36,299 bases of DNA, from positions 1 to 36,299 of the IMG/VR virus record IMGVR_UViG_2657245570_000017, one strand, 5' to 3'. Numbering within the stretch: position 1 is the first letter of the stretch; the number at the start of each line of letters is the position of its first letter. The notes under the pieces were generated by a model that saw only the letters and a list, made by a program, of their open reading frames with translations, ran no database searches and was not told where the DNA came from. A program made the position numbers and the translations under genes. This DNA comes from a virus. Lineage: Duplodnaviria > Heunggongvirae > Uroviricota > Caudoviricetes. Of this stretch, positions 2,798 through 35,100 are shown in pieces.

Positions 2798-2808
2798 AAG
2801 GCATTGCG

Positions 2809-3670: not shown

Positions 3671-3694
3671 GGTTACTGGACAAAGGGGGGCGCA

Positions 3695-3898
3695 ATGGCA
3701 ATTAAGCATTTTTCCGTCGTTCGCTTTACCTCCAGAGGGCGCGAATACGAGGTCGACGAACGCCTGATTACCACTATCGACAAACATCGTTCGGAAAAGG
3801 ATGCACACCACATCTACCTCACTGACGGCACTTACTTCTGCGCCACCAACGTGGCGCGAGTAAATCTTATCCGACAGGTACAGGAGCCACGCAGATGA
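3695..3898 (+). CDS. Hypothetical early protein
   Basis: 67 aa ORF, stop overlaps next start. Confidence 0.5.
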   Translation: MAIKHFSVVRFTSRGREYEVDERLITTIDKHRSEKDAHHIYLTDGTYFCATNVARVNLIRQVQEPRR

Positions 3899-4161
3899 CC
3901 ATTCTGGACTACATCGCTACTCATCCGGGGTGTAGCGGCGGAGAGATCGCCGCAGCACTGAATACTCCAACCACAGCCATTAATGCTGAGTTACGCCAAC
4001 TTTGGCGCGGCGGCTTAGTCATCAGAACAAACCGCAGCACAGGTGGTCGCGCTCGCAAAACAGGAGGCCAGGCTTCTTACCACGTAAACCCGATGCCGTT
4101 CGGGTGTAGCAATCCACTTACTCACATGTTTAACCAGCTACTGAAGGAAGCCAGAGCATGA
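3895..4161 (+). CDS. Putative winged-helix DNA-binding protein
   Basis: 88 aa; MTILDYIATHPGCSGGEIAAALN...LRQLWRGGLV looks like a winged HTH. Confidence 0.5.
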   Translation: MTILDYIATHPGCSGGEIAAALNTPTTAINAELRQLWRGGLVIRTNRSTGGRARKTGGQASYHVNPMPFGCSNPLTHMFNQLLKEARA

Positions 4162-4457
4162 GCACCATCAACCACCAGAAGCTACGCGAACTGGCATTTG
4201 CCCTGCAACGAATGGCAACGCCTCAAAAATTACTGGCATTTCGCGCAATGCTCTCGCCGTCTGCTGTGCTGGCACTGCTGGATGAGCTGGAGCACGCCAG
4301 AACCACGGCTCCTGCCATTCGCCTGACGCTCCATCATGAAATCGCTGATTTCTGCGCGACGTTGGAGGCGCCGGGCGAACCGGAAACGCCGGAAGCAATA
4401 CAGCAAGAGCTGCTGCAACGCATTGACAAGGTTTTTGATTTTTTTCTGAACCAGTAA
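4158..4457 (+). CDS. Hypothetical early protein
   Basis: 99 aa, translationally coupled to the upstream ORF. Confidence 0.5.
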   Translation: MSTINHQKLRELAFALQRMATPQKLLAFRAMLSPSAVLALLDELEHARTTAPAIRLTLHHEIADFCATLEAPGEPETPEAIQQELLQRIDKVFDFFLNQ

Positions 4458-4489
4458 GAAACCAGAACATGCACACACAAAAAAACCGC

Positions 4490-4518
4490 TTGCCATGCCG
4501 CAATCAGTCAGGTTACAT
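4490..4518 (+). promoter_or_regulatory. Candidate sigma70 promoter
   Basis: TTGCCA(4490-4495)-17 nt-TTACAT(4513-4518). Confidence 0.35.
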
Positions 4519-4524
4519 TTCCGC

Positions 4525-4599
4525 TGCACCTCATAAAACGGGTGCCGGGTTTCGCAGCCTGCTGACTAGCAAAGCGCACAACCGCGCCAGCGGTTTTTT
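4525..4599 (+). ncRNA. Candidate small structured RNA (about 75 nt)
   Basis: Between the promoter-like motif and a hairpin plus T7 run (stem 4580-4593, T-run 4593-4599); no RBS-led ORF in this interval. Confidence 0.3.
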
Positions 4600-4779
4600 T
4601 GTGCGTACTGTATTGCCACGTCTTTTTCGCACACGAATTATGGCGGGGCGTACGGGGCCGACTTCGGTCGGGCCGGGTTCTTTGCTAGCCGGTACTGCGA
4701 ACCTCGTACGTCTCGCCACCCACAGTTTCGCAGCTCTGGATGGTGAGTTTTCAAAACTTACTAGCAAAGAGGCCACACC

Positions 4780-8354: not shown

Positions 8355-9314
8355 ATGAAAATTTGTATCGATGACGGCTCCACCAACATCAAGCTGGCAT
8401 GGACTGAGAACGGCGAACGCCGCAACGCCATCAGCCCGAACAGCTTCAAGTCGGAATGGTCTGCGCCGTTCGGTGGCACGCAGCCCGCGAACTACATGCT
8501 TGATGGCGTGCGCTATGGTTTTGATCCGGTCAGCGATCGCTTTGTCCAGACGACCGACACGCAATACCAGTACAGCGATGTGAATGTCATTGCCATTCAT
8601 CACGCGCTGGTCAAATCAGGCATCACACCACAGGAAGTGGATGTGGTTGTCACCCTGCCACTGAGCGAATATTTCGACACAAACGCACAGCCGGACATGG
8701 CCAACATCAACCGCAAAAAAGCAAACGTCATGCGCCCGGTGGCGTACCAGAACGGAAAAGCATTCACTATCCGTAACGTACGGGTTATGCCTGAATCCAT
8801 TCCGGCTGGTTTTAAAGCACTGGCTGACATGAGTCCGTTTGAATCCCTGCTGATTGTGGATTTAGGCGGAACCACGCTGGATGTGGCAAAGGTTCAGGGA
8901 CAACTGGCAGGTATCAGCCAGGTGTTTTGCGATCCACACGTAGGCGTTTCCCTGATGGCCGATGCCGTACTGTCGGTGATGGCCACTAACGGTATGCGCA
9001 CCAGTCACCACATCGCCAATACCATTATCGAACATCGCCATGATGAAGCCTGGCTGCGCCAGCACATCCACAATGACGCGCATTACGCCAGCCTGATGGC
9101 GGTTATTCGTGAAAAGGAAGAAACACTGAAACAACGCGTGATCCGCGCGCTGGCGGTTTTTTCGGGTTACGGGCGGGTGATGGTTGTCGGTGGCGGGGCG
9201 GAGATTGTGGCACCCGCTATCCGCGAAGCCTGCGGAGTTAATGCGACTTTCATCGCGGACGGGGTGCCACAATTTGCTCTGGTTAATGGGCTGTACGCAA
9301 TGAACAAGGAGTAA
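8355..9314 (+). CDS. parM: Actin-like segregation ATPase, ParM/StbA family
   Basis: 319 aa; MKICIDDGSTNIKLAW, ISPNSFK, YSDVNVIAIHHAL, MPESIPAG, LIVDLGGTTLD, VVGGGAE and LVNGLY are collinear with R1 ParM as recalled; AAGGA RBS. Confidence 0.8.
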   Translation: MKICIDDGSTNIKLAWTENGERRNAISPNSFKSEWSAPFGGTQPANYMLDGVRYGFDPVSDRFVQTTDTQYQYSDVNVIAIHHALVKSGITPQEVDVVVTLPLSEYFDTNAQPDMANINRKKANVMRPVAYQNGKAFTIRNVRVMPESIPAGFKALADMSPFESLLIVDLGGTTLDVAKVQGQLAGISQVFCDPHVGVSLMADAVLSVMATNGMRTSHHIANTIIEHRHDEAWLRQHIHNDAHYASLMAVIREKEETLKQRVIRALAVFSGYGRVMVVGGGAEIVAPAIREACGVNATFIADGVPQFALVNGLYAMNKE

Positions 9315-9318
9315 ACCA

Positions 9319-9630
9319 ATGACGACACCAACCAGAAGAATAAGTTTCTATCTGAAGCCAGCTGCCGTCAAGAACGAAGGAGAAGCATGCGCCTGGCTGG
9401 ACAGTCTTACACCAGAAGCCCGCAAAAGCGGCCAACGCGTGGCTTTTCTGGCCGGGCTGGCACTTCTGAAGACGAATCCGGCAGAGGCTTACCGACTGGC
9501 CGCATGGGCTGATGATGAGATGTTACCTGTGACACAAATCAGCTCAAAAAAGTTTGAAGCACAGTCTGCACCAGTGGCTAAGATAACCAGCCAGATGGCT
9601 GGGAATATCCGGGCGTTATTTCCTGAGTAA
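9319..9630 (+). CDS. ParR/StbB-like centromere-binding adaptor (putative)
   Basis: 103 aa, 4 bp after the parM-like gene, AAGGAG RBS; N-terminal region ISFYLKP...RVAFLAGLALLK resembles ParR; sits at the parR position. Confidence 0.5.
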   Translation: MTTPTRRISFYLKPAAVKNEGEACAWLDSLTPEARKSGQRVAFLAGLALLKTNPAEAYRLAAWADDEMLPVTQISSKKFEAQSAPVAKITSQMAGNIRALFPE

Positions 9631-21434: not shown

Positions 21435-22035
21435 TTCACTGTTACCACCATCAGCCAGCAATTTCATGCGTTGTGCCGAAGCCGTCGGAACACGCATTAC
21501 AGACATTCCGGTAGACCTCAACACGCTGTGGTCGCCGGACACCTGCCCGGTGCATCTGCTGCCTTATCTCGCCTGGGCGTTTTCCGTTGACCGCTGGGAT
21601 CGCAACTGGCCGGAAGAGACAAAGCGACAGGTAATTCGTGATGCATGGCTGATACACCGACACAAAGGGACCATCAGCGCACTGCGAAGAGCCGTGGAGC
21701 CTCTCGGTTACCTGATTGAAGTAAAGGAGTGGTGGCAACTCAACGAGGAGCCGGGAACATTTCGCATTGTTGTCGGAGTACTTGATCAGGGCATCACCGA
21801 TGAAATGTATCAGGAACTTGAGCGCCTTATTGCGGATGCAAAACCAGTAAGTCGCCATCTGACGGGGCTGGCGATCAGCCTGAGTGTGAACGGAAAGATT
21901 TTCGTTGGTACGGGATGCTATCACGGCGATGCCCTGACGGTTTATCCCTACACCCCGGAGTCCATTATTGTCGAAGGGGATTATTTCCCTGCCCCGGCCA
22001 TTCATTTAATTGATAATCTGAGAGTAAACGCATGA
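21427..22035 (+). CDS. I: Baseplate protein, gpI-like
   Basis: ATG at 21427, 202 aa. Confidence 0.75.
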   Translation: MSNSLLPPSASNFMRCAEAVGTRITDIPVDLNTLWSPDTCPVHLLPYLAWAFSVDRWDRNWPEETKRQVIRDAWLIHRHKGTISALRRAVEPLGYLIEVKEWWQLNEEPGTFRIVVGVLDQGITDEMYQELERLIADAKPVSRHLTGLAISLSVNGKIFVGTGCYHGDALTVYPYTPESIIVEGDYFPAPAIHLIDNLRVNA

Positions 22036-23627
22036 CAGTGAAATACTACGCCATTCTGACTAATCAGGGCGCAGCACGACTGGCTAACGCGACGATGCTC
22101 GGCAGTAAGCTGAATCTGACGCAAATGGCCGTTGGTGATGCAAATGGTGTGTTACCAACACCAGACCCTGCACAAACAAAACTGATTAACCAGAAACGCA
22201 TTGCACCGCTGAATCTTCTGAGTGTTGACCCTAACAATCAGAGCCAGATTATTGCGGAGCAAATCATCCCTGAAAACGAGGGAGGATTCTGGATCCGTGA
22301 GATTGGTCTTTATGATGATGAAGGTGTACTCATTGCGGTGGCAAACTGCCCGGAAACGTACAAACCGCAGTTGCAGGAAGGCAGTGGACGCACCCAGACT
22401 ATCCGCATGATTCTGGTTGTCACGAACACCGAAGCCATCACGCTGAAAATCGACCCGTCTGTGGTTCTGGCAACCCGCAAATATGTGGATGATAAAATCT
22501 CAGAGCACGAACAGTCACGACGTCACCCAGACGCCTCGCTGACCGTAAAAGGTTTTACTCAGTTAAGCAGTGCAATTAACAGTGAATCAGAAACACTGGC
22601 CGCAACACCGAAAGCGGTTAAGGCTGCATATGACCTGGCTAACGAGAAATATACCGCCCAGAACGCCACCACTACACAAAAAGGGATTGTTCAGCTCAGT
22701 AGCGCCACGAACAGCACGTCTGAAACACTGGCAGCGACACCAAAAGCTGTTAAGGCGGTAATGGATGAAACGAACAAGAAAGCACCATTAAACAGCCCGG
22801 CACTGACCGGAACGCCAACAACACCAACAGCGGCACAGGGGACTAATAGTACCCAGATCGCAAGCACGGCTTTCGTTATGGCCGCGATTGCCGCACTTGT
22901 AGACTCGTCACCTGATGCACTGAACACGCTGAACGAACTGGCTGCGGCGCTGGGCAATGACCCGAATTTTGCGACCACCATGACTAACGCGCTTGCGGGT
23001 AAGCAACCGAAGGATGCCACCCTGACTGCGCTGGCGGAGCTTGCTACATCAGCAGATAAACTCCCATATTTTACAGGGGCAGATCGTGCCGCGTTAACCG
23101 CGTTGACAAGTGTTGGACGTGCCATTCTTGGCAAAACCAGCACTCAGGGAGTTCTTGATTACCTTGGTTTGGGGGAAGGCTCTGCACTGCCCGTTGGTGT
23201 ACCTGTTCCATGGCCCTCAGCCACGCCGCCAACGGGGTGGCTGAAATGTAACGGCGCAGCATTTTCTTCTGAAATGTATCCCAGACTGGCAATGGCTTAC
23301 CCCACCAATAAATTACCAGACTTACGCGGTGAATTTATCCGTGGCTGGGATGATGGGCGCGGGGTGGATGCCGGAAGGGTCATCTTAAGCATGCAGGGGT
23401 GGTTAACAGGAAGTCATTATCATAATATTCGGTCATGGGATGCGTGGGATAACACGGTACTGGTGCCAAATGACAAAGGCGGGGATAGTCTGTTGTCGAC
23501 AGATAACGCCGTCCGGCAAGGTGCAATTAACGGTAGATTTACCAGTCAATACAGAACGGAATCCTCAGAGGGGAATGAAACCCGCCCACGCAATATTGCC
23601 TTCAATTATATTGTGAGAACCGCATAA
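22032..23627 (+). CDS. H: Tail fibre protein, gpH-like (constant region plus currently expressed variable cassette)
   Basis: 531 aa; tandem SETLAATPKAVKA repeats; collar-like GWLKCNGAAFS...LPDLRGEFIRGWDDGRG; C-terminus ETRPRNIAFNYIVRTA. Confidence 0.9.
   Translation: MTVKYYAILTNQGAARLANATMLGSKLNLTQMAVGDANGVLPTPDPAQTKLINQKRIAPLNLLSVDPNNQSQIIAEQIIPENEGGFWIREIGLYDDEGVLIAVANCPETYKPQLQEGSGRTQTIRMILVVTNTEAITLKIDPSVVLATRKYVDDKISEHEQSRRHPDASLTVKGFTQLSSAINSESETLAATPKAVKAAYDLANEKYTAQNATTTQKGIVQLSSATNSTSETLAATPKAVKAVMDETNKKAPLNSPALTGTPTTPTAAQGTNSTQIASTAFVMAAIAALVDSSPDALNTLNELAAALGNDPNFATTMTNALAGKQPKDATLTALAELATSADKLPYFTGADRAALTALTSVGRAILGKTSTQGVLDYLGLGEGSALPVGVPVPWPSATPPTGWLKCNGAAFSSEMYPRLAMAYPTNKLPDLRGEFIRGWDDGRGVDAGRVILSMQGWLTGSHYHNIRSWDAWDNTVLVPNDKGGDSLLSTDNAVRQGAINGRFTSQYRTESSEGNETRPRNIAFNYIVRTA
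23152..23177. other. hix/gix-like recombination site S1 inside H
   Basis: TTCTTGATTACC-TT-GGTTTGGGGGAA; left half matches hixL TTCTTGAAAACC at 10 of 12 as recalled; right half identical to the cassette sites. Confidence 0.6.
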
Positions 23628-24238
23628 TGAATAACGCGATATTAAATGATGACCTTATTGCCGTACAGGCAGGAAACATCGTCGTTTATAACTATGATGG
23701 TGAGACACGGGAATATATTTCCGAATCAACTGAATATCTTGCTGCGGGTGTCGGTATTCCGGCAAATTCCTGTTTAGATGCCCCGGGCGCACATAAAGCG
23801 GGCTATGCTATCCGCCGTTCGGAGAATTTAAATTCATGGGAGTATACGCCAGATCATCGTGGTGAAACCGTCTATAACACTGACACGGGAAACACCGAAG
23901 AAATCACGACGCTAGGTGACTACCCGAAAAATACAACCACTATCTCCCCGTCAACACCATACGATAAATGGGATGGTGAAAAATGGGTGACAGATACTGA
24001 GGCACAACATAGTGCCGCAGTAGAAGCGGCAGAAACCAAGCGCCAGTCACTGGCTGATGCGGCAATGGCTTCCATAAGTCTGATTCAGTTGAAGTTGCAG
24101 GCCGGGCGGAAGTTGACGCAGGCAGAAACCACCCGGCTTAACGCCGTGCTGGATTATATAGACGCGCTGAACGCAATGGATATAAACATGGCACCAGATA
24201 TCAACTTGCCGGAAATACCACTGGCAGCAGCCAGTTGA
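23627..24238 (+). CDS. G: Tail fibre assembly chaperone, Tfa/gpG-like
   Basis: 203 aa; start overlaps the H stop; conserved Tfa-type C-terminus LNAVLDYIDALNAMDINMAPDINLPEIP. Confidence 0.8.
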   Translation: MNNAILNDDLIAVQAGNIVVYNYDGETREYISESTEYLAAGVGIPANSCLDAPGAHKAGYAIRRSENLNSWEYTPDHRGETVYNTDTGNTEEITTLGDYPKNTTTISPSTPYDKWDGEKWVTDTEAQHSAAVEAAETKRQSLADAAMASISLIQLKLQAGRKLTQAETTRLNAVLDYIDALNAMDINMAPDINLPEIPLAAAS

Positions 24239-24244
24239 ATATAA

Positions 24245-24712
24245 CTAAGCCGCCCTCACGATATAGTTAAATGCAATATTGCGGGGGCGGGTTTCACTAC
24301 CACCTGTGTTACCAATACTTCCTCGTGAATGAAGCGTTGGTGATGGAATCAAACTCCCTCCTGTATTTGTGGCATCAAGCCCCCTGCCTTGTGTATATGT
24401 TTTTTTGAAAATCGTGGCCAACTCCCATTCATCCTTTGTGTCATATCCATCGTTAGCTACAACAATATGGCGGTGTTTTTCCAACATCCCGGTTTGAATG
24501 CTCAATAAAGCGCGTGCTGCATCAATTCCTCGCCCATCATCCCAGCCACGAATAAATTCGCCCCGTAAATCCGGTAATTTATTGGTGGGGTAGGCTTTTG
24601 CCAGATTGGGGTACATTTCAGAAGAAAATGCTGCGCCGTTACATTTCAGCCAGCCCGTTGGTGGTGTTGCTAAGGGCCACGGAACGGGCACACCAACGGG
24701 CAGTGCAGAGCC
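24245..24712 (-). other. Silent tail-fibre C-terminal cassette (5'-truncated, promoterless)
   Basis: Encodes GLGEGSALPVGVPVPWP...collar motif...variable tip...ETRPRNIAFNYIVRAA; homologous to the 3' third of H. Confidence 0.8.
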
Positions 24713-24738
24713 TTCTCCTAAACCAACGTTTTCATGCT
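24713..24738. other. hix-like site S2
   Basis: TTCTCCTAAACC-AA-CGTTTTCATGCT, inverted relative to S1; contains the stop codon of the next cassette. Confidence 0.6.
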
Positions 24739-25229
24739 GCTCTTACGATGTAATTAAACGCAATGTTGCGTGGGCGGTTTTCGTTTGCAGTTGGAACAAT
24801 TCTTGAAGCATCAAGGCCAATCACTTTTGGGTAAACAGTGCCATCTGTTCTTTCAGTCACCATACTTCTGATTAAGGAGAAATAACTATTGTTCGTTGAG
24901 GGACTCAAAGGCACCACTGCCCCCTTAAATGAGCCTACTGATTCCCATATTGAATAATTTTCGGTGTTTACAGTCTTGAACTCACCATAGATATTACGTA
25001 TGGCATCACCTTGAGCGGATAATATTGTTCTCCCCGCATCCACACCACGTCCGTCATCCCAACCACGGATAAATTCACCGCGTAAATCCGGTAATTTATT
25101 GGTGGGATAAGCCTTTGCCAGTTTTGGGTACTTTTCAGAAGAAAATGCTGCTCCGTTGCATTTCAGCCATCCCGTTGGCGGTGTTTCTAAGGGCCACGGA
25201 ACGGGTACACCAACGGGCAGTGCAGAGCC
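24732..25229 (-). other. Silent tail-fibre C-terminal cassette
   Basis: Same conserved N- and C-terminal segments with a different central region. Confidence 0.8.
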
Positions 25230-25255
25230 TTCCCCCAAACCAACGTTTTCATGCT
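25230..25255. other. hix-like site S3
   Basis: TTCCCCCAAACC-AA-CGTTTTCATGCT. Confidence 0.6.
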
Positions 25256-25707
25256 GCCCTTACGATGTAATTAAACGCAATGTTATGGGGGCGTGTTTCA
25301 GATGCTGTGCGAACTGAGCGAGAGGCGTCGAATGTCCATACAGAAGCACCATATCCTTCAATGATCTCAGTTGGTTGTAAGCCTACTGATAATATAGAGT
25401 CAGTTTGACTAAATGGTCCTGAATTAAGCGCATCTTTAAAAAGCTGAGTACGCCCAAAAGTGCCAACTATATTCTGAATAGCGTCAGACTGTGCAGACAG
25501 TAGGTTGCGCCCATTATCAACGCCCCGTCCGTCATCCCAGCCGCGAATAAATTCGCCCCGTAAATCCGGTAATTTATTGGTGGGGTAGGCCTTTGCCAGA
25601 TTGGGGTACATTTCAGAAGAAAATGCTGCGCCGTTACATTTCAGCCACCCCGTTGGCGGCGTGGCTGAGGGCCATGGAACGGGCACACCAACGGGCAGCG
25701 CAGAGCC
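25249..25707 (-). other. Silent tail-fibre C-terminal cassette
   Basis: Third variant; the ORF-track N-terminal extension beyond the site is read-through of non-coding sequence. Confidence 0.8.
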
Positions 25708-25733
25708 TTCCCCCAAACCAACGTTTTCGTCTT
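25708..25733. other. hix-like site S4
   Basis: TTCCCCCAAACC-AA-CGTTTTCGTCTT, 55 bp upstream of the invertase start. Confidence 0.6.
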
Positions 25734-25787
25734 TATCCCTACCTATACCAACTATGTATTTTTCACGAAACAAAAAGGATGTTTTTT

Positions 25788-26387
25788 ATGCAAATTGGCT
25801 ATATTCGTGTGTCAACAAATGACCAGAACACGGATTTACAACGCAATGCACTGAACTGCGCAGGATGTGAACTGATTTTTGAAGATAAAATCAGCGGAAC
25901 GAAATCAGCCAGACCGGGATTGAAAAAACTGCTCAGAACGCTATCAGAAGGAGATACGCTGGTTGTCTGGAAGCTGGACAGACTGGGCAGAAGTATGAAA
26001 CACCTGATCACGCTTATTGAGGAATTGCGGAAAAAAGGTGTTAATTTCCGTAGTCTGACGGACAGCATTGACACATCAACACCCATGGGGCGTTTCTTTT
26101 TTCACGTCATGGGGGCTTTAGCCGAAATGGAACGTGAATTAATTGTAGAGCGTACACTGGCCGGGCTGGCAGCAGCACGCGCACAAGGACGCATTGGCGG
26201 ACGTCGCCCGAAGTTGACAAAAGAACAACACGAGCAAATAGCGAGGCTGATTAAAAACGGTCATGACAGGAAACAACTGGCGATCATTTACGACATCGGC
26301 ATATCGACGATTTATCGTTATCACCCTGTAGGCGATATACAGGCTGAAGAAACAACCAGGCAGACTCAGGAAAATGAAAACCGCTAA
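25788..26387 (+). CDS. Serine DNA invertase, Hin/Gin/Cin/Pin family
   Basis: 199 aa from ATG at 25788; GYIRVSTNDQ (catalytic Ser), TLVVWKLDRLGRS, MGRFFFHVMGALAEMERELIVERT and a C-terminal HTH match Hin as recalled. Confidence 0.9.
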   Translation: MQIGYIRVSTNDQNTDLQRNALNCAGCELIFEDKISGTKSARPGLKKLLRTLSEGDTLVVWKLDRLGRSMKHLITLIEELRKKGVNFRSLTDSIDTSTPMGRFFFHVMGALAEMERELIVERTLAGLAAARAQGRIGGRRPKLTKEQHEQIARLIKNGHDRKQLAIIYDIGISTIYRYHPVGDIQAEETTRQTQENENR

Positions 26388-26406
26388 TCTGACCATTAGC
26401 GGTTTT
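26375..26406. terminator. Bidirectional hairpin between convergent invertase and U
   Basis: GAAAACCGCTAAT-CTGACC-ATTAGCGGTTTTG, A-run 5' and T-run 3'; overlaps the invertase stop codon. Confidence 0.6.
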
Positions 26407-26413
26407 GCGTTAA

Positions 26414-26908
26414 TCAAAACAGCCCTTTAACGGAGCTGGCCGCGCTGTTAAGGGATGATGTGACCTTATCTTTGAAGCCGGACAGCATATCACTGAACGA
26501 TGAGGATTGCAGGCGCTCCCGCAAATCCTCATCACAGCGTTCAAGAGTCAGTGAAAATTCTATCTTTTTCGCCTTACCGTAGCGATCAAACTCGGAGCGG
26601 GTCGTATTCGTTTCAGTCAGTACATACATGCCGTAAATCTGCCCGACACCATCAATCAGAGGCCAGGGGCGTCCTGTATATGCCTGCGTGGTCAGCAGCG
26701 AAAGCGACACTTCGCCACCTGTAATTTCAGGATAAAGCACGCCAGAAAGCACGATGCGATCATCACCTGCACCGATATACTGCCAGCTTGCTGAGCGGTT
26801 TACGCGCTCATTTTTCACATGCCGCCAGCTTTTGTTTTGCTGTAACTGCTGATGCGGCAGTGTGCGCAGCTCAAAAACAAACATGCCGTAGATCATCATC
26901 ATGGCCAT
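26414..26908 (-). CDS. U: Tail protein, gpU-like
   Basis: 164 aa; follows the tape-measure gene on the minus strand. Confidence 0.7.
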   Translation of the reverse strand: MAMMMIYGMFVFELRTLPHQQLQQNKSWRHVKNERVNRSASWQYIGAGDDRIVLSGVLYPEITGGEVSLSLLTTQAYTGRPWPLIDGVGQIYGMYVLTETNTTRSEFDRYGKAKKIEFSLTLERCDEDLRERLQSSSFSDMLSGFKDKVTSSLNSAASSVKGLF

Positions 26909-26914
26909 GACTCC

Positions 26915-29758
26915 TCAATCTTTATCGTAAAAACTGCCACGCCCGGCACGGGCGCGCCGTTCCGTTTCTGCCCTGACCATTTCACCGACCAGTTTCGCCA
27001 GTTCGCGGGGATTCTGCGTAACAACGTTATGCAGATGAACATGAATTTCACCACCAAATCCGGAGGCAACAGGCTCCCGGTTACGGGAAGTTACAGGAAC
27101 TGATGCCACTGGAGATCGTATGGCCTCCGCCACCGGGCGGGAGCTGGCCGCAACAACAGGGACCAGCGCCGGAGGCAGCGGAGCCGGGACCACGGGGGTG
27201 ATATTAATTGCGGGGGCAGGCTTACCGACCTGCGCAATCTTCCGCTCCTGCCACTCCCCACGAACAGCAAGTGCGCGGGGCAGGTTCTTAAAGACAATAT
27301 CGCCGGGGCCAATGCGTTTTTTCGTCTCATCAACCAGCTTACCTGTGTTATCAGCAATTTTGCTGAGTCTGCGTAGTGTACCGGTATTGCTGTCTGTGAG
27401 CGGTTTGTTGTCTTTGGGTTTATCACCTCCGGTGCCATTGCCATTTTCCACAGGCTTCGGCGGATTGATTTTCGCCAGGTCCCCCTGAAGCAAGGCAACC
27501 TTGTCCTGAAGAATGGCCGCACGCTGTGCGTCTTCGATTTTCTTTCTCGCCCTTTCCGCTTCATCCGGAAGCACACCGAGTTTTTCAAGTATCCACGCCA
27601 GCGTATCCAGCAACATTTTTGCGGGCGTCAGAACAAGCTGTAACGCACCGCCAAGAACGTTACCGAATGTCTCGCCAGCACTGGTACATTTATCCAGCGT
27701 TTCCTTGCTGGACTCCATCGGTGACAGCAGCGATTTAAACCAGTTAAACACCTGACTTATCCCGCTTCCGATTGCGTCAAAAACAGGACCAAACCGTTCA
27801 AAGGTTTCGCGCAACGGAGCCAGCCGTTCCATAATCCCACTGAACACCCCGGCATAAAACGCCTTGATGGGTTCCCAGTATTTCCAGATGAGAACCGCCG
27901 CAGCCACAAACGCGGCAACAATCAATCCGACCGGACTGAACAGCGCCCCGATAGCGCCACCCAGCAACGAGATGGAACCTGTTACCATTCCCCATAGTGC
28001 TGGCAGCACCCTGACGACATTCATTGATCCTGTCAGGAGGGAAAAACCAAGACGCAGTTTTGCCAGCGGACCAGCAAGCACACCAATAGCCAGCGACAAC
28101 GAGCCAATCGTTGCAGTCATTGCCAGCAACGCACCGCCTGCAATCAGTAGCTGGCGCGTCAGTGCAGGATGCGCCTGCGCCAGCGCCGTCACCTTTGAGA
28201 CCACCTTCGTCAGCCACTGCGTGACAGAACGCAGCGGACCGTCAATCAGATCGGCAATGCGGATACGCAGCCCTTCCCATGCACTGCCGAGTGATTTCAG
28301 ATCGCCGTCAAGGTTGTTGGCCATAACCTTTGCCGTGCGTTCAGCCTCACCGCGCGCGCCTTCAAGTTCTTTTCTCAGTTTAGGTAAGGAGCCGTCACCT
28401 GCCGCATCAACGAGGGCCATAAATGATGTGAAAGCCTCTTCTCCGGCAATGTCCTTAAAGAACGATACCCGGTCAACTTCCCCGTATTTGCGGGTGGCTT
28501 TATAAAGGTCGGCCAGCAAATCCTCCATCGGGCGCATTTTGCCGTTCGCATCAGAGACGGACACGCCCAGCTCTTTCAGAGCTTCTGCCGCCGCCTTTGG
28601 CGGTGATGCCAGACGAGCCAGGCTGGCACGCATTGCCGTCCCGGCATCACTCCCTCTGATACCCATATTCGCCAACACGCCAGCCATCGCTGCGGCCTGC
28701 TCCAGCGATATTCCCAGCTTACCCGCTACCGGACCTGCATATTTCATGGTTTCGCCCAGTGCGCGAAGGTCAGTGTTGGTACGGGTAAACGCTGCGGTGA
28801 GTGTGTCACCGACCCGGTCCATCTGGTCAGCAGAAAGGCCGAACTGCGTCAGGATGTTTGAGCCAATATCCGCCGTCTCGCCGAGATCCATACCGCCAGC
28901 CGTTGCCATGCTCAGCACACCGGGAAGCGCAGCCTGAATGGCCTGTGGTGTGAAGCCAGCCATTGCAAGAAATGCCTGTCCACTGGCGGCATCTCCAGCG
29001 GTGAACTGCGTTTCAGAGCCAAGTTTTAACGCCTGCTCACGCAGCGCCTTAAACTGCGGGCTGTTCTGGTCGATTCGCGTCAGCGCCTGAACGCGGGACA
29101 TCTCTTTCCCGAACCCGATCGCAGGCTGCAAAAAACGCCCGGCAGCATAGCCGCCCGCCGCTACCGCACCAATTGCCAGCGCACCACCTGTTTTCAGTTT
29201 TTCCGCTGTTTCCTGCGCGCGCGAATACCGCTCACGCGCCCGCGTTACACGCGCAAGCGCCTGCCGTTCGCGTTCAAGCTGGTTGTTGTATTGTTCGGTG
29301 CGTCTGATGGCCTGCTGGATGGTGTTATCGCTGCCTGTCAGGGAAATGCCGTGGCGTTTCAGCTCTCCGCCAAGCTCCCGCATTTTCTGAATTTCCCGTG
29401 TGCGCGATTCATTCAGGCGTTCAAGCCGGGTGCTTAACTGCTGCATCAGCTTTTGTTGTTTTTCGCTGAGCACTGTCCCCGTGCGTTGTAACTGATTAAG
29501 GGCGTTAAGCTGGCGTCGTGCTTTCACGATGCCCGCATCCGCTTTACTGACAGCGTCACGGGCGCGCTCAAATGAACGCGCCTGACGCTCGAGATTTTTG
29601 ATCGCCCCCTGCGTTCGCTGGATGGAGTCACCAAACTGCCCCATCAGGCGGCGGGCGTTTTCGGCAGGCCGGGTCAGCCTGTCAACGGCGCTGAAAGCGA
29701 CCCGGATATCAAGAGTCTTCATTGTCTGCATTCCCGCTGCGAAGTGCCGCCCGCTCAC
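26915..29758 (-). CDS. T: Tail tape measure protein, gpT-like
   Basis: 947 aa, alpha-helical Ala/Gly/Leu-rich protein with coiled-coil N-terminal region. Confidence 0.85.
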   Translation of the reverse strand: MSGRHFAAGMQTMKTLDIRVAFSAVDRLTRPAENARRLMGQFGDSIQRTQGAIKNLERQARSFERARDAVSKADAGIVKARRQLNALNQLQRTGTVLSEKQQKLMQQLSTRLERLNESRTREIQKMRELGGELKRHGISLTGSDNTIQQAIRRTEQYNNQLERERQALARVTRARERYSRAQETAEKLKTGGALAIGAVAAGGYAAGRFLQPAIGFGKEMSRVQALTRIDQNSPQFKALREQALKLGSETQFTAGDAASGQAFLAMAGFTPQAIQAALPGVLSMATAGGMDLGETADIGSNILTQFGLSADQMDRVGDTLTAAFTRTNTDLRALGETMKYAGPVAGKLGISLEQAAAMAGVLANMGIRGSDAGTAMRASLARLASPPKAAAEALKELGVSVSDANGKMRPMEDLLADLYKATRKYGEVDRVSFFKDIAGEEAFTSFMALVDAAGDGSLPKLRKELEGARGEAERTAKVMANNLDGDLKSLGSAWEGLRIRIADLIDGPLRSVTQWLTKVVSKVTALAQAHPALTRQLLIAGGALLAMTATIGSLSLAIGVLAGPLAKLRLGFSLLTGSMNVVRVLPALWGMVTGSISLLGGAIGALFSPVGLIVAAFVAAAVLIWKYWEPIKAFYAGVFSGIMERLAPLRETFERFGPVFDAIGSGISQVFNWFKSLLSPMESSKETLDKCTSAGETFGNVLGGALQLVLTPAKMLLDTLAWILEKLGVLPDEAERARKKIEDAQRAAILQDKVALLQGDLAKINPPKPVENGNGTGGDKPKDNKPLTDSNTGTLRRLSKIADNTGKLVDETKKRIGPGDIVFKNLPRALAVRGEWQERKIAQVGKPAPAINITPVVPAPLPPALVPVVAASSRPVAEAIRSPVASVPVTSRNREPVASGFGGEIHVHLHNVVTQNPRELAKLVGEMVRAETERRARAGRGSFYDKD

Positions 29759-29927
29759 GCCAGCTAACCACTTCGCCGGGCGTCATCATGAAGATTTCGG
29801 CGGGCGACCAGTTAAAAATAACGGCAATATCTGCCACAAAGTCTTCTATGTGCTCAAAGCACACAACCGTGATCAGGCTTCCGTCGCCTGTTCGTTCTTC
29901 CCGCCAGAGTCCGCACCGCTCAAAAAA
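29709..29927 (-). CDS. E' extension reached by -1 programmed frameshift (E+E' product)
   Basis: Slippery heptamer TTTTTTG on the coding strand (plus coordinates 29921-29927) near the E 3' end; the -1 frame stays open to 29709, overlapping the T start. Confidence 0.55.
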   Translation of the reverse strand, partial: FFERCGLWREERTGDGSLITVVCFEHIEDFVADIAVIFNWSPAEIFMMTPGEVVSWRERAALRSGNADNEDS

Positions 29928-30238
29928 TTTACGGCAACCACACATAACTGAATAAAGTCACGGGATGCCATTTTTTTGATCGTCACTTCATCCAGTCGCG
30001 GTGATGTCACGCGTGACAGCAGCGTAAACATGGATTCCGCTTTCAGATTCAGCACATCAGACAGCGACAAATCTCGCAGAGATCCAGCCTGCTCAATAGC
30101 TCCGGTGATCTCCACATACGTGATTTTTTCGCCGCCTCGCTCAATTGGTTGGGTAAGTTTTACGCCACGCTCACTGGTTTCTTTCACAGTGTCAGCAACT
30201 ACCGTGTTTTCGGTATCGATGTTTTTCGTCTCTTTCAT
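29873..30238 (-). CDS. E: Tail assembly chaperone, gpE-like
   Basis: 121 aa, AAGGAG RBS; lies between the tube and tape-measure genes. Confidence 0.7.
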   Translation of the reverse strand: MKETKNIDTENTVVADTVKETSERGVKLTQPIERGGEKITYVEITGAIEQAGSLRDLSLSDVLNLKAESMFTLLSRVTSPRLDEVTIKKMASRDFIQLCVVAVNFLSGADSGGKNEQATEA

Positions 30239-30292
30239 CAGGAAACTCCTTTCAGTCAGAGGCGACGCACTGCGCCGCCTGCATATTACTTA

Positions 30293-30805
30293 TCAGCCAA
30301 GCCCAAGCGCGGAACGGATGCGATCGGGCACAATGTCCTTGCCGTCCTTCCGGTAAATGAAGTTCAGCAGGTCAATCTCCCACAACGGACGATCGTTAAC
30401 ACTCAGCTTGTAGTAGGTGTTTTTAATGGCGTAAGTGTGTGATGTGGCTTCGCCCTGTTTGGCTTCCCCCATATCAATTTCCGTCACACGTCCGCGCATT
30501 TCGACTTCATACAGGTCGCTTTCTGCATCAGTGTAATATTCACCCGCAAAACGCAGCAGCGTGCCGTCAATCGTGCCGCCATACTTAAGGAACAGCTCAC
30601 GAACTGCGCCCCCCATGACAAAGCTCGCATCAAGCGCGGAGTCGTCCAGACCGAGATCAATACTTACCGCACCCATCATGCCACCACCCCGGTAGCTGTC
30701 GGTTTTGCGCGTCAGCTTAGGCAGAGTGACGGACGTCACCTTACCCACTTCGTTTTCACCATCCACAAACAGCGTAAAAAAGCGAAGATGTTTTGGCACA
30801 GCCAT
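30293..30805 (-). CDS. FII: Tail tube protein, gpFII-like
   Basis: 170 aa; position and size. Confidence 0.8.
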   Translation of the reverse strand: MAVPKHLRFFTLFVDGENEVGKVTSVTLPKLTRKTDSYRGGGMMGAVSIDLGLDDSALDASFVMGGAVRELFLKYGGTIDGTLLRFAGEYYTDAESDLYEVEMRGRVTEIDMGEAKQGEATSHTYAIKNTYYKLSVNDRPLWEIDLLNFIYRKDGKDIVPDRIRSALGLG

Positions 30806-31989
30806 CAGGCACCTCCCAGAACCGCAAATGCGGGTTCAAAGTATTCATCAGTAAACGTCTGGTAAAGCTCCATGTCTTCCAGTGGCGGAACGGGCGTATA
30901 TTTGTAGCGAATACGCACACGCCCCTGACGTAAATCCGTGGTGCTGTTATCCACCACGTCATACCAGCACTGCGCGCCAATCAGTTTCCCGGCAGTAACC
31001 AGTGAATCCAGTTTTGCCCTGATGGCACTGATAACATCCTTCACGTTCGCAGGCGTCAGTGGACTGTCGATGGTTTCAAACTGCGCTTCCGCAATTGAAT
31101 CAGCCAGCACCTGTGCGGTTCGGGTATACACCTCAAAAATGTAGGCGTTCGTTTCCGGTGTGCGGTTGCCCCAGAAGCGGAACCCGTTGCGACGAATAAT
31201 GGTCGTGATTTCTTTGTTGTTGAGGCTGTTGGCATCGCTGTCTTCGGCCTGCAACGACCAGAACACATGCCTCGACATCCCCAGCACATTTTTAACCGGA
31301 ACGTTGGACAGCGATTTGTGCCAGCCCTGCTCATGGTCAATGTACGCACGAAGGCCGCACGCATAAGCAGGCGCGGGGAACGTTTCGTTTTCGCCACTTT
31401 TCGGGTTGTAGGCGATGAAGTCCGGCCATAAGAGCATCACTTCACGTTCGTTGAATTTCTGGCGGTAGGTAATCGCTTCAGCCATCGTGTTACAGCCGTG
31501 ACATGAGGCATACACAAATGCGCGCAGTTTACCCGCAATCACGCACAGGGATTTTGTCACCGCCTCCGTGTCCAGCTCCGGCGCGGCCAGAATACGCGGA
31601 CGGTATCCGATGCTTTCATCCTGCTCTGCAACAAGCAGCGCATACATCCCCGTATAGCTGCCGTCATCCTCAGAACCACCGATAACCAGTTGATCCTGCG
31701 TCTTTTCGTCTTCTTCTTTGTGTTCAGCCACGCGAACGACGATCACCTTTGTGCTCACCTGGTCTGCGATGGCCTTAAGCGCACGATAAAGCGTCCCCGT
31801 TGTTCCGCATTTTCCCAGCACGTCATTGACGCGGGTCAGCAGTGTGGGCTTGTTCAGCGGGAACAACTTCGCGTCCGCATCATCCGCCGTTGCCACGATA
31901 CCGATAACGCTGGAATCAACATCGTTAATCGCTGTTACCAGGTCGGTATTTTCCGTAACACGGGCACCATGAAAACGAGTTTCACTCAT
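30805..31989 (-). CDS. FI: Tail sheath protein, gpFI-like
   Basis: 394 aa; FPLNKP, LRAF, WPDF, EQGWHK, RRNGFRFWGNRT, YTRTAQV and YTPVPPLE segments match P2 FI as recalled. Confidence 0.9.
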   Translation of the reverse strand: MSETRFHGARVTENTDLVTAINDVDSSVIGIVATADDADAKLFPLNKPTLLTRVNDVLGKCGTTGTLYRALKAIADQVSTKVIVVRVAEHKEEDEKTQDQLVIGGSEDDGSYTGMYALLVAEQDESIGYRPRILAAPELDTEAVTKSLCVIAGKLRAFVYASCHGCNTMAEAITYRQKFNEREVMLLWPDFIAYNPKSGENETFPAPAYACGLRAYIDHEQGWHKSLSNVPVKNVLGMSRHVFWSLQAEDSDANSLNNKEITTIIRRNGFRFWGNRTPETNAYIFEVYTRTAQVLADSIAEAQFETIDSPLTPANVKDVISAIRAKLDSLVTAGKLIGAQCWYDVVDNSTTDLRQGRVRIRYKYTPVPPLEDMELYQTFTDEYFEPAFAVLGGA

Positions 31990-32144
31990 AGCTTCAGCCC
32001 CTTGTATCCGTTAAATGATTCGGCAACAATCATCACCCACCACGCGCGTAATCTCACCCCTGCGCCGTTCTCCCGCCACGGCGACAACAAAAAGCAGTAA
32101 CCCCCTCCGCACGCACATGCGACCATGCCACACAGGGAGGGAGC

Positions 32145-33256
32145 AGATGACCGACACCACCATGCAATTGCTCAGTCAGGGCACAGACCCCGTGAAAATG
32201 CCGGATTTTGATATTCTCGCCGAGGGTAAAACGCTGTCCGGCGTGGCAGAACGCCTGATGAGCCTGTCACTGACCGACAACCGGGGATTTGAGGCGGACC
32301 AGCTCACCATCACGCTGGATGATGCCGATGGCCAGTTGCAGCTACCGCCACGGGGCGCGCGTCTGACGGTTCTCATTGGCTGGAAAGGGGAACCGCTGAC
32401 AGAAAAAGGCACTTACATTGTTGATGAAATCGCTCACGAAGGACCGCCGGACAGGCTGACTGTTTCAGCCAGAAGCGCAGATTTTCGGGATGAATTTAAC
32501 GTTAAACGTGAGGTGTCATGGCATGATGTGACCGTTGAGCGTGTGGTATCCGCCATCGCTCATCGGTACGGCCTGAAACCGCAAATCAGCGAAATGCTGA
32601 TGGATATCGAAATCGACCACGCCGACCAGACTGAAGAAAGCGACATGTCCTTCCTTACGCGCATGGCGGAAATGCTGGGCGCAATCACCACGGTAAAAAG
32701 CGGTAATCTGTTATTCATCATGCCCGGCGGTGGCGTGAACGCACAGGGCCAGCCGTTGCCATCGTTCGCCATCACACGCAGCAGCGGCGATCGCCATCAG
32801 TTCCGCATTGCTGACCGCGAGGCGTATACGGGGGTACGCGCTTACTGGCTTGATCTTAATTACGGGAAAAAGAAAAAAGTCAGCGTGAAACGCCGCAAAC
32901 CGCCAAAACCCAAAAAGGAGAAAAGCAGCAGCCGTGAAGGTGATTATATGGAAGGCGCAGAAGGCAATGTGTTTGTGTTACGCAAGACTTATCAGAACGA
33001 GCAGGCAGCAAGACGCGCAGCGGCGGCAAAGTGGCAGCAGCTACAACGCGGAGCCGCATCATTTTCCATCACGCTGGCACGCGGACGCGCAGAACTCTAC
33101 CCCGAAATGCATGGCACGGTAACAGGATTTAAAAGCGAGATTGATAATCAGGACTGGATTATTGCAAAAGCCGAGCACACCATTGATAACAGTGGCTTTA
33201 CCACGCAGCTTGAGCTTGAGGCAAAAATCCCGGAATGGATAGCGGAAATAGAGTGA
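32145..33256 (+). CDS. D: Tail protein D (late control gene D family)
   Basis: ATG at 32145 with GGGAGGGAG RBS, 370 aa; immediately upstream of ogr as in P2. Confidence 0.7.
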
Positions 33257-33298: not shown

Positions 33299-33559
33299 AT
33301 GTTCCGTTGTCCGCTTTGTGGCGCATCTGCCCGTATCCGCACCAGTCGTTCGGAAAATGATTCAAACACCGTACGGAAAAAATATTACCAGTGTAACAAC
33401 CTGGAATGCGGCGTATGCTTCTCAACACTGGAAGCCTTCCATAAATTCACATCAAAACACGCCTCCGGCGTTCACTCTTCAGAAGGTATCCCGTGGCATG
33501 AGCTGCCAGCTTCACACAGGGGAAACAATCAGATGAGTTTGCCTTTACCTCAGAATTAA
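33299..33559 (+). CDS. ogr: Ogr/Delta-type zinc-finger late transcription activator
   Basis: MFRCPLCG...YYQCNNLECGVCF, a C2-C2 finger resembling P2 Ogr MFHCPLC...YHQCQNVNC as recalled. Confidence 0.8.
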   Translation: MFRCPLCGASARIRTSRSENDSNTVRKKYYQCNNLECGVCFSTLEAFHKFTSKHASGVHSSEGIPWHELPASHRGNNQMSLPLPQN

Positions 33560-33750
33560 CAGGCAGAATTGCCGGAGTAACAAAAAAGCGATAGATTACG
33601 CGCGGGTGCCTTTCGGCTGATGGTCGGAGGGAATACCCGAAGGCCAGATGTGGAAAGGCCCCGGAAAACATTTCTGTTTAACCGAGGCCCTAACATATCT
33701 ACCTTAAGCAAGTGATAGGTTAGCGCCTCTCCAACAAAGGAGCAAGCGCT

Positions 33751-33891
33751 ATGTCGCAAAAATCGCTTACGGCCATCACGTTCTGCGTGACGGTAATCCT
33801 CATCATCTGGATGCTGCACGGTTCGCTGTGTGAAATACGGATGAGCTTCTGGGGAGCGGAGTTTGCGGCGTTCTTACAGTGTAAGCAGTAA
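33751..33891 (+). CDS. Hok/Gef-family type I toxin (46 aa)
   Basis: AAGGAG RBS; hydrophobic helix ITFCVTVILIIWML followed by the family signature SLCEIR and AEFAAF (compare Hok KSLCEIR...EVAAF as recalled). Confidence 0.7.
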   Translation: MSQKSLTAITFCVTVILIIWMLHGSLCEIRMSFWGAEFAAFLQCKQ

Positions 33892-33978
33892 GGAAACCGC
33901 GACGGGGGAGCAATCCCCCGTCAATCGGTTGCTAAGGTTGGCTGAAGTGGCACCCTATCTCTCAGACATGAACAACAA

Positions 33979-34011
33979 ACCCGCAGCGTAAAAACTGCGG
34001 GTTTTCTTTTT
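33979..34011 (+). terminator. Rho-independent terminator of the hok-like transcript
   Basis: ACCCGCAG-CGTAAAAA-CTGCGGGT followed by TTTCTTTTT. Confidence 0.7.
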
Positions 34012-34054
34012 GCTACCCTCACAAATGAGGGCACCATACATAAGCAATAGGCAT

Positions 34055-34100
34055 AACAGATCGATGCAATAAATCCGATCGATAAAAACGATCGATTTGT
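34055..34100. promoter_or_regulatory. Cluster of three GATC (Dam) sites upstream of com-like gene
   Basis: GATC at 34059, 34077 and 34090, each within CGATCGAT-like context. Confidence 0.5.
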
Positions 34101-34140
34101 TATCATATCGGCAGCAGTAACCACACAAGAGGTGCCGCAA

Positions 34141-34338
34141 ATGACGCAAAATGTACGATGCAAAAATTGCAACAAACTACTTGCCCGCGCCTCATTTCAC
34201 TACATTGAAATAAAATGTCCGCGCTGCAAAACACTTAACCAGATAACGAGAGCCATCGAGCACCCCACACACATGAGGAGTTATGACCGTGGGGATCGCA
34301 ATCCGGCACCAACCAGCACATACACCGGAACACACTAA
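34141..34338 (+). CDS. com: Com-like zinc-finger translational activator
   Basis: 65 aa from ATG at 34141 (AAGAGG RBS); CKNCNKLL...IEIKCPRCK matches Mu Com CKNCNKLL...IEIRCPRCK as recalled; overlaps the downstream gene start. Confidence 0.75.
   Translation: MTQNVRCKNCNKLLARASFHYIEIKCPRCKTLNQITRAIEHPTHMRSYDRGDRNPAPTSTYTGTH
34263..34294 (+). promoter_or_regulatory. Stem sequestering the methyltransferase RBS and start codon
   Basis: CCCCAC (34263-34268) pairs with GTGGGG (34289-34294), enclosing GAGGAG and ATG 34283. Confidence 0.5.
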
Positions 34339-35074
34339 GGTTTATCAGACTGACAATGCCACGCTCTGTCGTGGGAATGCACTGGAAATATTGCCGCTGA
34401 TTGAGCCAGAAAGTATTGATGCCTTAATCACTGACCCGCCTTACAGTTCGGGCGCGACACACAAGGCCGGACGCACCAACCAGGGCAGCCACGCAAAATA
34501 TCTGAACGGCGAGAACCTTCATCGCTTTGATGGGTTTGCGGGTGAAAACATGGATGCCCGTTCGTGGGCTTACTGGACACAATTATGGATGGCACAGGCA
34601 CACCGCGCAGTCAGGCCGGGCGGTTATGCCCTGGTATTTACTGACTGGCGACAACTGCCAGCTTTAACCGATGCGTTTCAGGCCAGCGGTTTTACATGGC
34701 GTGGAATCATTGCGTGGAACAAAGGAAGGGGGTCACGAACACCCCATACGGGGTATTTCCGGCATCAGTGCGAATACATCGTCTGGGGCAGTAAAGGCCA
34801 TTTAGGTAAATCGCCTTCGGGACCGTTCGACGGCTGCATGACGTTCCCGGTTATCCCATCAAAGAAAATGCACCCGACCGGAAAACCAGAAGAACTTATG
34901 GCAGAACTGGTCAGGACTGCGAATAGTGGTGGAACAGTCCTTGATCCTTTTATGGGATCGGGAACAACGGGTGTTGCAGCACTAAAAGCAGGACGCAAAT
35001 TTATTGGTATAGAAACCAGTGATCATTATTTTGATGTAGCAACACAACGGCTCAAAACGGCGATCGAACCATAA
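34283..35074 (+). CDS. DNA methyltransferase (N6-adenine/N4-cytosine, beta class)
   Basis: 263 aa; DPPY motif (ITDPPYSS) precedes the AdoMet motif DPFMGSGTTG; alternative GTG start at 34289. Confidence 0.85.
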   Translation: MTVGIAIRHQPAHTPEHTKVYQTDNATLCRGNALEILPLIEPESIDALITDPPYSSGATHKAGRTNQGSHAKYLNGENLHRFDGFAGENMDARSWAYWTQLWMAQAHRAVRPGGYALVFTDWRQLPALTDAFQASGFTWRGIIAWNKGRGSRTPHTGYFRHQCEYIVWGSKGHLGKSPSGPFDGCMTFPVIPSKKMHPTGKPEELMAELVRTANSGGTVLDPFMGSGTTGVAALKAGRKFIGIETSDHYFDVATQRLKTAIEP

Positions 35075-35078
35075 GACA

Positions 35079-35100
35079 AAGCCCGCAATGTTGCGGGCTT
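35079..35100 (+). terminator. Hairpin after the methyltransferase (weak terminator)
   Basis: AAGCCCGCA-ATGT-TGCGGGCTT, 9-bp stem; poor T-run. Confidence 0.45.

Follow-up and report, generated by a model that had tools for sequence, protein, structure and literature searches.

Multi-site inversion of phage tail-fibre genes has been known since the Min system of plasmid p15B, for which Sandmeier, Iida, Arber and co-workers reportedly described, in 1990-1992, six crossover sites and 240 isomers. The P2-like 'shufflon' of enteropathogenic Escherichia coli (EPEC) E2348/69 comprises three repeats and two overlapping inversions that generate four variants (Goldberg et al., 2014, Genome Med 6:112, PMC4272514), and these four variants were found by polymerase chain reaction (PCR) and sequencing to coexist in single-colony cultures (PMC4272514). 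PacBio reads of E. coli EC958 likewise contained both orientations of a segment of prophage Phi2, with the 26-bp site TCCTCAATTACCTT GGTTTAGGAGAA (Forde et al., 2014, PMC4134206). Here we analyze a related locus around tail-fibre gene H in IMG/VR virus record IMGVR_UViG_2657245570_000017, taken at its full length of 36,299 nucleotides (hereafter, the window). The locus is very probably a switch of phage host range that works by multiple inversion and is driven by a serine invertase, and the main residual doubt concerns whether this copy is active rather than its identity.

The whole 36-kb window is a P2-like prophage, and its host is E. coli, with the flk gene at its right end showing 99.5% identity to E. 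coli chromosomes. The elements of the switch, listed below in the order of their coordinates, comprise gene H with one expressed tip, a single tail-fibre assembly gene (tfa), three silent tips arranged head-to-tail on the strand opposite H, four crossover sites (S1-S4) and the invertase gene.

22032-23627, plus strand: gene H as a whole, 531 amino acids (aa), with an N-terminal tail-collar fibre domain, Phage_fiber_2 repeats and a C-terminal Collar domain
22032-23163, plus strand: constant 5' part of H, from the open reading frame (ORF) list and Pfam matches PF12571 and PF03406, ending ...GVLDYL at the crossover
23152-23177, plus strand: site S1, TTCTTGATTACC TT GGTTTGGGGGAA, core TT at 23164-23165, the sole site in this orientation
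23166-23627, plus strand: expressed tip, type T6, 153 aa plus stop, with a Pfam Collar match, a variable centre and the C-terminal end ...NIAFNYIVRTA
23627-24238, plus strand: tfa, a P2 gpG-like tail-fibre assembly gene, 203 aa, matching Pfam Caudo_TAP (3.4e-32) and PHROG 105 ('tail fiber assembly')
24245-24724, minus strand: silent tip A, type T4, 159 aa plus stop, from translation, Pfam Collar and module maps
24713-24738, minus strand: site S2, AGCATGAAAACG TT GGTTTAGGAGAA, holding the TGA stop of tip B
24732-25241, minus strand: silent tip B, type T2, 169 aa plus stop, from translation, Pfam Collar and clustering
25230-25255, minus strand: site S3, AGCATGAAAACG TT GGTTTGGGGGAA, holding the TGA stop of tip C
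25249-25719, minus strand: silent tip C, type T5, 156 aa plus stop, from translation, Pfam Collar and clustering
25708-25733, minus strand: site S4, AAGACGAAAACG TT GGTTTGGGGGAA, the site closest to the invertase
25788-26387, plus strand: DNA invertase, 199 aa, a small serine recombinase of the Gin/Hin/Cin/Pin/Min ('Din') family

The 26-bp sites are made up of imperfect inverted 12-bp half-sites (TTCTTGATTACC, TTCCCCCAAACC / TTCTCCTAAACC, AGCATGAAAACG and AAGACGAAAACG) around a TT/AA core. A 16-nt pattern combining the shared half-site and the core has just these four matches in 36.3 kb, against 0.10 expected by chance, and a search of the whole window for other core-like sites returned none. 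The window sites agree with the published consensus table and with the EC958 Phi2 site, and resemble the Mu gix site, TTATCCAAAACCTCGGTTTACAGGAA. An earlier note made from the sequence of this DNA had placed a hix-like 26-bp site at each junction, with S1 inverted relative to S2-S4 and the central dinucleotide in frame, and the analysis bears this out: in each of the four copies the TT core falls in frame, reading ...DYL/GLGEG in H and ...ENV/GLGEG in the silent copies, where the slash marks the crossover. Because S1 is inverted relative to S2-S4, a first inversion would span one of three intervals measured from S1, of about 1.56, 2.08 or 2.56 kb, giving H fused to tip A, B or C, respectively. 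S4 is the fixed outer boundary of the invertible region.

The presence of the H tip head in four copies, three of them inverted, was also confirmed. The inverted repeat arms pair 23156-23395 with 24495-24734 (240 nt, 84% identical), 23156-23377 with 25030-25251 (222 nt, 88% identical) and 23161-23369 with 25516-25724 (209 nt, 90% identical). All four tips are intact, remaining open from GLGEGSALPVGVPVPWP through to the stop, with no frameshifts in the window. They share about 77 conserved N-terminal and 16 conserved C-terminal residues, which enclose unrelated centres of 60-90 residues. Pfam Collar (PF07484) matches all four tips (1e-13 to 1e-15), and a profile built from them matches, among PDB structures, the T4 gp37 tip (2xgf, E-value 1.1e-20), reaching its C-terminal NIAFNYIVRLA, as well as the T4 gp12 collar at about 1e-5 to 1e-6. 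The conservation of the tip ends around a variable centre follows from this gp37/gp12-like organization, in which the chain leaves the collar, forms the variable distal part and returns with ...NIAFNYIVR. The T4 gp37 structure thus has in common with the tips described here a collar-type tip and the C-terminal return strand, while the tip centres are unrelated to the gp37 needle and head and fall far short of them in length. Two expectations from the earlier note required correction at this level. The C-terminal end, described there as the same in every copy, varies, with H ending in ...IVRTA, tip B carrying ENRPRN and tip C carrying ETRPHN. The proposal that each silent stop codon lies inside the next site applies to tips B and C, whose TGA codons fall in S2 and S3, and fails for tip A, whose stop abuts the end of tfa. 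An AlphaFold2 model derived from the four-tip alignment was unusable (predicted local distance difference test score 32.7, predicted template modelling score 0.17), and an NCBIfam search left the tips and tfa without a family-level name and gave the invertase only matches below threshold.

The adjacent Hin-like serine invertase anticipated in the earlier note was readily identified. Its product contains a Resolvase domain (residues 3-135, 1.7e-51) followed by an HTH_7 domain (residues 138-180, 1.4e-12), and Ser9, present in MQIGYIRVSTNDQ, aligns with Ser9 of Gin. The PDB matches of the invertase include Mu Gin (4m6f and 3uj3, E-value about 1e-90, 305 bits) and the Hin DNA-binding domain (1hcr), whereas its top resolvase match, gamma-delta, is far weaker (1.8e-31, 112 bits). 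Sequence identity amounts to 71% with Gin, 92.6% with the invertase of a P1-like plasmid and 99% with the E2348/69 invertase. Residues specific to Fis/enhancer-dependent invertases and absent from resolvases have been defined in Hin as K47, K/R48, K/R51, Q151, R154 and L155 (McLean et al., PMC3798978). All these positions are conserved in the window invertase, corresponding, when aligned with Gin and with the Hin DNA-binding domain 1hcr, to K46, K47 and R50 in basic helix B and to the Fis-contact residues Q150, R153 and L154. Judged from its sequence, the invertase is a member of the Fis/enhancer-dependent Din family. Short plus-strand ORFs (24598-24753, 25115-25270 and 25593-25787) with a recurring MPDWGTFQKKMLRRYISA... 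run antisense to the conserved heads of the silent tips, the third of them continuing in frame into the invertase ORF; the recurrence is most likely a by-product of the repeated sequence.

Among 5,426 complete E. coli genomes, the tail-fibre region (22000-26450) found matches in 2,795 and the cassette part (23380-25720) in 1,440, at chromosomal as well as plasmid locations. Two assemblies of the E2348/69 lineage, CP059840.2 (L002) and LT903847.1 (L003), are identical over 6,895 bp save for one segment of 1,928 bp (2702-4629), which is an exact reverse complement and is flanked by identical 37-bp arms that start at the TT core. The published 215-bp repeat of E2348/69 matches L003 exactly. Together with the Gin match, the published variants and the crossover at the TT core, these isomers uphold the idea, put forward in the earlier note, of a multi-cassette system akin to Gin, Cin, Pin, Hin and Min.

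To compare cassette content, BLAST-anchored maps were drawn for twelve loci: the window, ten related chromosomal E. coli loci (L001-L003, L005-L010 and L013) and one P1-like plasmid locus. The chromosomal loci together contain eight tip types, with 3-6 tips per locus in many orders and orientations, and the plasmid adds two further types. Writing > and < for the two strands, the window reads H>T6>tfa><T4<T2<T5, Q5 reads H>T8>T6>tfa><T4<T7<T5, EC9 reads H>T5>T4><tfa<T6<T8, and GF66.2 (L013) reads H>T4><tfa<T6<T8<T3<T1<T2. The GF66.2 prophage occupies the same flk site as that of the window, and the first 300 nt of H and the first 600 nt of the invertase gene are 100% identical between the two. 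Every mapped locus has exactly one H-type left half-site (TTCTTGATTACC), which marks the expressed junction, and one invertase-proximal left half-site, of the AAGACG/AAAACG type, which in the related loci always lies beside the invertase; at the other sites the left half is the end of the preceding cassette.

These maps also locate the point of exchange. Across ten loci (the window and nine chromosomal relatives), the 205-nt conserved head differs at a median of 2 positions between copies of the same tip in different genomes, as compared with 18 between different tips of one genome. A given tip type occurs behind all three kinds of upstream left half-site, and the upstream context switches exactly at ...ACC/TT or ...ACG/TT. 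Since heads stay with their tips and the same tip is found behind all three half-sites, exchange is confined to TTGGTTT, and the linkage of repeat polymorphisms to their own tip argues against homologous recombination spread over the repeats.

Further variation was apparent in the same set of loci. Cassette number ranges from 3 to 6 per locus, and at least ten tip types are common to the P2-like prophages and the P1-like plasmid (L001, L005, L006, L009, L010 and L013). In L006 tip T5 occurs twice, one copy being frameshifted, which suggests that cassettes are gained and lost via recombination between directly repeated heads. The P1-like phage record vB_EcoM-673R5 (L011, ON470615.2) carries the same multi-cassette module, with its tips and invertase frameshifted and the invertase annotated as Hin1 and Hin2; it was left out of the mapping because its module is full of frameshifts, which are probably homopolymer sequencing errors.

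According to the mechanism proposed here, invertase dimers would bind the four 26-bp sites, S2-S4 each standing at the start of a tip cassette that has no promoter of its own. Host Fis would occupy an enhancer, and both participating sites would be cut at the central TT/AA with a 2-nt stagger, half of the complex would be rotated and the ends religated, leaving the intervening DNA inverted. With the core in frame at ...L/GLGEG..., each inversion would fuse the constant 377-codon part of H to another tip, and inner sites flipped by the first inversion would in turn serve as partners in later rounds. No deletions are expected from sites in direct orientation, as the invertasome of Hin and Gin forms only in inversion topology. 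Each tip would consist of a conserved collar enclosing a variable receptor-binding centre, as in T4 gp37. In-frame tip exchange would therefore allow a lysogen population to release phage of mixed receptor specificities, a form of bet-hedging on host range.

The enhancer step of this mechanism would follow established family behaviour, and so would a dependence on Fis and an enhancer in this strain. Recombinational enhancers span about 60 bp, contain two Fis sites and act in cis, classically from within the 5' part of the invertase gene. For Mu, an enhancer within the invertase gene is attributed to Kahmann (1985) as cited in PMC3798978. In the window, nt 61-120 of the invertase gene are AT-rich and 75% identical to Mu gin. 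The enhancer was sought through a codon-level DNA comparison with Mu gin and through a degenerate Fis-motif scan for pairs 48 bp apart.

The tfa gene introduces a second level of organization, which the earlier note did not mention. Its ATG overlaps the H stop codon (TAATG), so that tfa is translationally coupled to the currently expressed tip, T6. It is the only Caudo_TAP gene, the three silent tips filling the entire 24245-25733 interval, and tip A converges on it, with the two stop codons 6 bp apart. The T6-tfa unit is invariant in all twelve mapped loci, the P1-like plasmid included. In each of them the 3' end of tfa meets a converging tip, of type T4 in the P2-like loci and of type T3 in the plasmid. 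Enumeration of the states that can be reached by successive inversions yielded 12 arrangements with four different expressed tips. The earlier suggestion that the prophage can display at least four tail-fibre tips thus stands at the level of DNA, whereas their display as working fibres would rest on one tfa, cognate to a single tip. The supply of Tfa to the tips may come from one Tfa acting on all of them via the shared collar, or from the Tfa of another prophage in trans.

Several observations weigh against reading the locus as an active host-range switch. The record is a single assembled sequence, and we infer flipping in this strain from its relatives. Scanning the 5' part of the invertase gene for Fis motifs returned weak, non-specific matches and no convincing site pair, the position of one motif pair within the gene not being relatable to the known sis element. 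The tips are presumed to differ in host range, and of the 12 arrangements that can be reached, 6 have tfa antisense to H, among them all those that express tip A (T4). Part of this would be accounted for if the cassettes and invertase were a frozen relic, inherited from an active ancestor and now static through a defective prophage, a silent invertase or a missing enhancer. The single arrangement visible in the assembly and the failure of the motif scan to locate the enhancer are compatible with such a relic, as are the promoter predictions: over 21900-26600, promoter and terminator counts were the same as in shuffled sequence, and neither the invertase nor a leftward transcript across the silent cassettes and tfa could be given a promoter above chance. 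The FI-U operon, moreover, is reversed relative to canonical P2-like phages, which calls full prophage function into question. However, none of the four tips is disrupted, nor is the invertase, which retains all key residues; the E2348/69 locus, which flips in culture, has a 99%-identical invertase and the same reversed FI-U block; and the GF66.2 prophage, with the identical invertase sequence at the same flk site, is in a different isomer state. A static relic is for these reasons very unlikely. Flipping could also be attributed to homologous recombination that depends on RecA and acts on the 205-240-bp inverted repeats, with no role for the invertase or the 26-bp sites. The repeats, at 209-240 nt and 84-90% identity, would suffice in principle, and the crossover separating the E2348/69 isomers can be resolved only to somewhere in the 37-bp identical stretch. 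That stretch, however, starts exactly at the TT core, and recombination along the repeats would scatter junctions across them and homogenize them, whereas their polymorphisms remain linked to the tip and the upstream switch is precise. An intact Gin-family invertase is, in addition, always adjacent. This explanation is scarcely credible.

The remaining alternative accepts that switching is real and holds that only some arrangements make working fibres, with tfa serving T6 alone, or serving other tips only when co-oriented with H. The cassettes without tfa would in that case act chiefly as a recombination reservoir, and not as four equally usable tips. It draws on the single Caudo_TAP gene available for four tips, on its coupling to T6 in a unit invariant across the 12 loci, and on its antisense position in 6 of 12 states, with no promoter above chance found on the opposite side. 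With a single tfa that is antisense in half of the arrangements, some arrangements may therefore yield no assembled fibres, and hence fibreless phage. Against this, the tfa-less tips are intact and evidently constrained in many genomes, their collar residues are invariant, and the window shows no frameshifts. Lambda Tfa can substitute for gp38 in the assembly of T4 gp37, and, because of this precedent and of the collar shared by all tips, one chaperone may act on all of them. Other tfa genes are usual in E. coli genomes and could act in trans, and arrangements with tfa antisense to H are common in natural assemblies, amounting to 4 of the 12 mapped loci (L003, L007, L008 and L013). Restriction of working fibres to some arrangements is thus unlikely, though it retains more of a chance than either a relic or RecA-driven flipping, and the stronger statement that fibre assembly depends on the arrangement of the switch, not just on the tip fused to H, appears rather doubtful. 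The locus as a host-range switch with interchangeable tips remains the preferred reading.

On that reading, up to four receptor specificities can be represented among the particles that the prophage releases, and a single assembled genome displays one of 12 possible arrangements. Annotation is affected because silent tips are routinely called 'phage tail protein' genes, and there are consequences also for long-read assembly and for host-range prediction from sequence. Multi-site invertase switches have been known since p15B Min, and this exact family has been seen flipping in E2348/69 and EC958, so that the locus by itself adds little to the field. Specialist interest may lie in the pool of interchangeable tips shared by P2-like prophages and P1-like plasmids, and in one tfa serving several tips. 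Two outcomes can be envisaged for the single tfa. The collar-type mini-cassettes may require no dedicated chaperone for folding, or may use a generic one that works on the shared collar; or else the switch may have a hidden second layer, with infectious phage coming from some isomers only. In either case, a new rule for building multi-cassette tail-fibre switches would emerge.

Outside the switch, the prophage runs from an integrase at the left end through replication genes, Q-P/O-N-M-L, lysis genes and V-W-J-I-H, with ogr adjoining flk. The tail block FI-FII-E-T-U (26414-31989) lies on the minus strand, reversed with respect to the canonical P2-like order (L012), in which FI...U-D follow the invertase on the H strand. 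It includes the genes for the sheath (30805-31989), the tape measure (26915-29758) and gpU (26414-26908), while gpD (32015-33256) is kept on the plus strand, divergent from FI and separated from it by a gap of only about 25-120 bp. The reversed FI-U order was found in all related chromosomal E. coli loci examined. We considered whether the invertase also flips the FI-U block and rejected the idea: inspection of the block boundaries revealed neither inverted repeats nor hix-like sites, and the window contains no further core-like site. Between the convergent invertase and gpU genes lies one further feature, which alone stood out from the shuffled background in the promoter and terminator scan.

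26377-26406, between the convergent invertase and gpU genes: hairpin with a perfect 12-bp stem, AAAACCGCTAAT...ATTAGCGGTTTT, from the terminator scan and the sequence (consensus match only)

This hairpin looks like a bidirectional terminator. Downstream of a 940-aa replication gene, two ORFs (8355-9314, 319 aa, and 9319-9630, 103 aa) match in size and position GF66.2 (L013) genes annotated as ParM and 'plasmid partitioning/stability protein', and would constitute a plasmid-type partition module within an integrated P2-like prophage. For the ogr-flk interval (about 33300-35100), three genes are annotated in the E. coli records that match it, encoding a Hok/Gef toxin, a Com-family regulator and a site-specific DNA methyltransferase. 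The methyltransferase corresponds to a 263-aa ORF (34283-35074) and forms, with the Com-family regulator, a Mu com/mom-like pair at the prophage end.

Comparison with the known invertase systems places the locus among them. The Mu G/Gin, P1 C/Cin, e14 P/Pin and Salmonella Hin switches employ the same enzyme family, 26-bp sites and a 2-bp core, and in Mu, P1 and e14 inversion fuses a constant tail-fibre part in frame to alternative tips, as in the window. All four are, however, two-site, two-state switches, whereas the window combines four sites with mini-cassettes of a single tip each and one tfa. Every tip of Mu and P1 comes with its own assembly gene (S-U and S'-U', Mu having both U and U'), which is not the case here, and the core dinucleotide is TT in the window and TC in Mu. 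A two-state mirror segment of the Mu/P1 type was rejected for the window on account of its single tfa. The R64/IncI shufflon (Rci, pilV) obeys the same logic, with invertible segments choosing the C-terminus of a receptor-binding protein, and the resemblance is functional only; an R64-type shufflon was rejected, given that Rci is a tyrosine recombinase acting at sfx sites and the enzyme adjacent to the cassettes is a serine recombinase. The term 'shufflon' applied to the E2348/69 locus (PMC4272514) is accordingly an analogy.

Closer resemblances were found among E. coli prophages and P1-like plasmids. EC958 Phi2 resembles the window in its collar-domain 3' parts and in its 26-bp site, which lies within an inverted repeat of 227 bp. 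It differs in being a two-site, two-state switch of a 2,067-bp segment, described as mirror-symmetric, each side having its cognate minor gene (PMC4134206). With p15B Min (X62121) the window shares a constant 5' part with several 3' parts, a Din-family invertase and more than two 26-bp sites, a comparison that was made through the P1-like plasmid p22AR0747A. In this plasmid the same module follows the S gene and comprises six sites and one tfa. Its tips T4, T6 and T3 show 89-97% identity in the variable part. The invertase proteins of plasmid and window share 92.6% identity, and the first 544 nt of their genes 91%. Because a P1-like plasmid carries it, with six sites and an invertase of such identity, the module is of the Min-of-p15B type; it differs from the Min plasmids in lying in a P2-like prophage behind H, with four sites, and not behind the P1 gene S. 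P2-like prophages and P1-like plasmids share one cassette pool. Closest of all is the E2348/69 locus, which has the same prophage type, gene order, site (ACCTTGGTTTGGGGGAAGG...), T6-tfa-T4 unit and collar-type tips as the window, and differs in having three sites, tips T6, T4 and T8 and four variants, compared to the four sites, tips T6, T4, T2 and T5 and 12 arrangements described here. The window locus is therefore a four-site sibling of the three-site E2348/69 switch, belonging to the multi-site Min type among Din-invertase tail-fibre switches.

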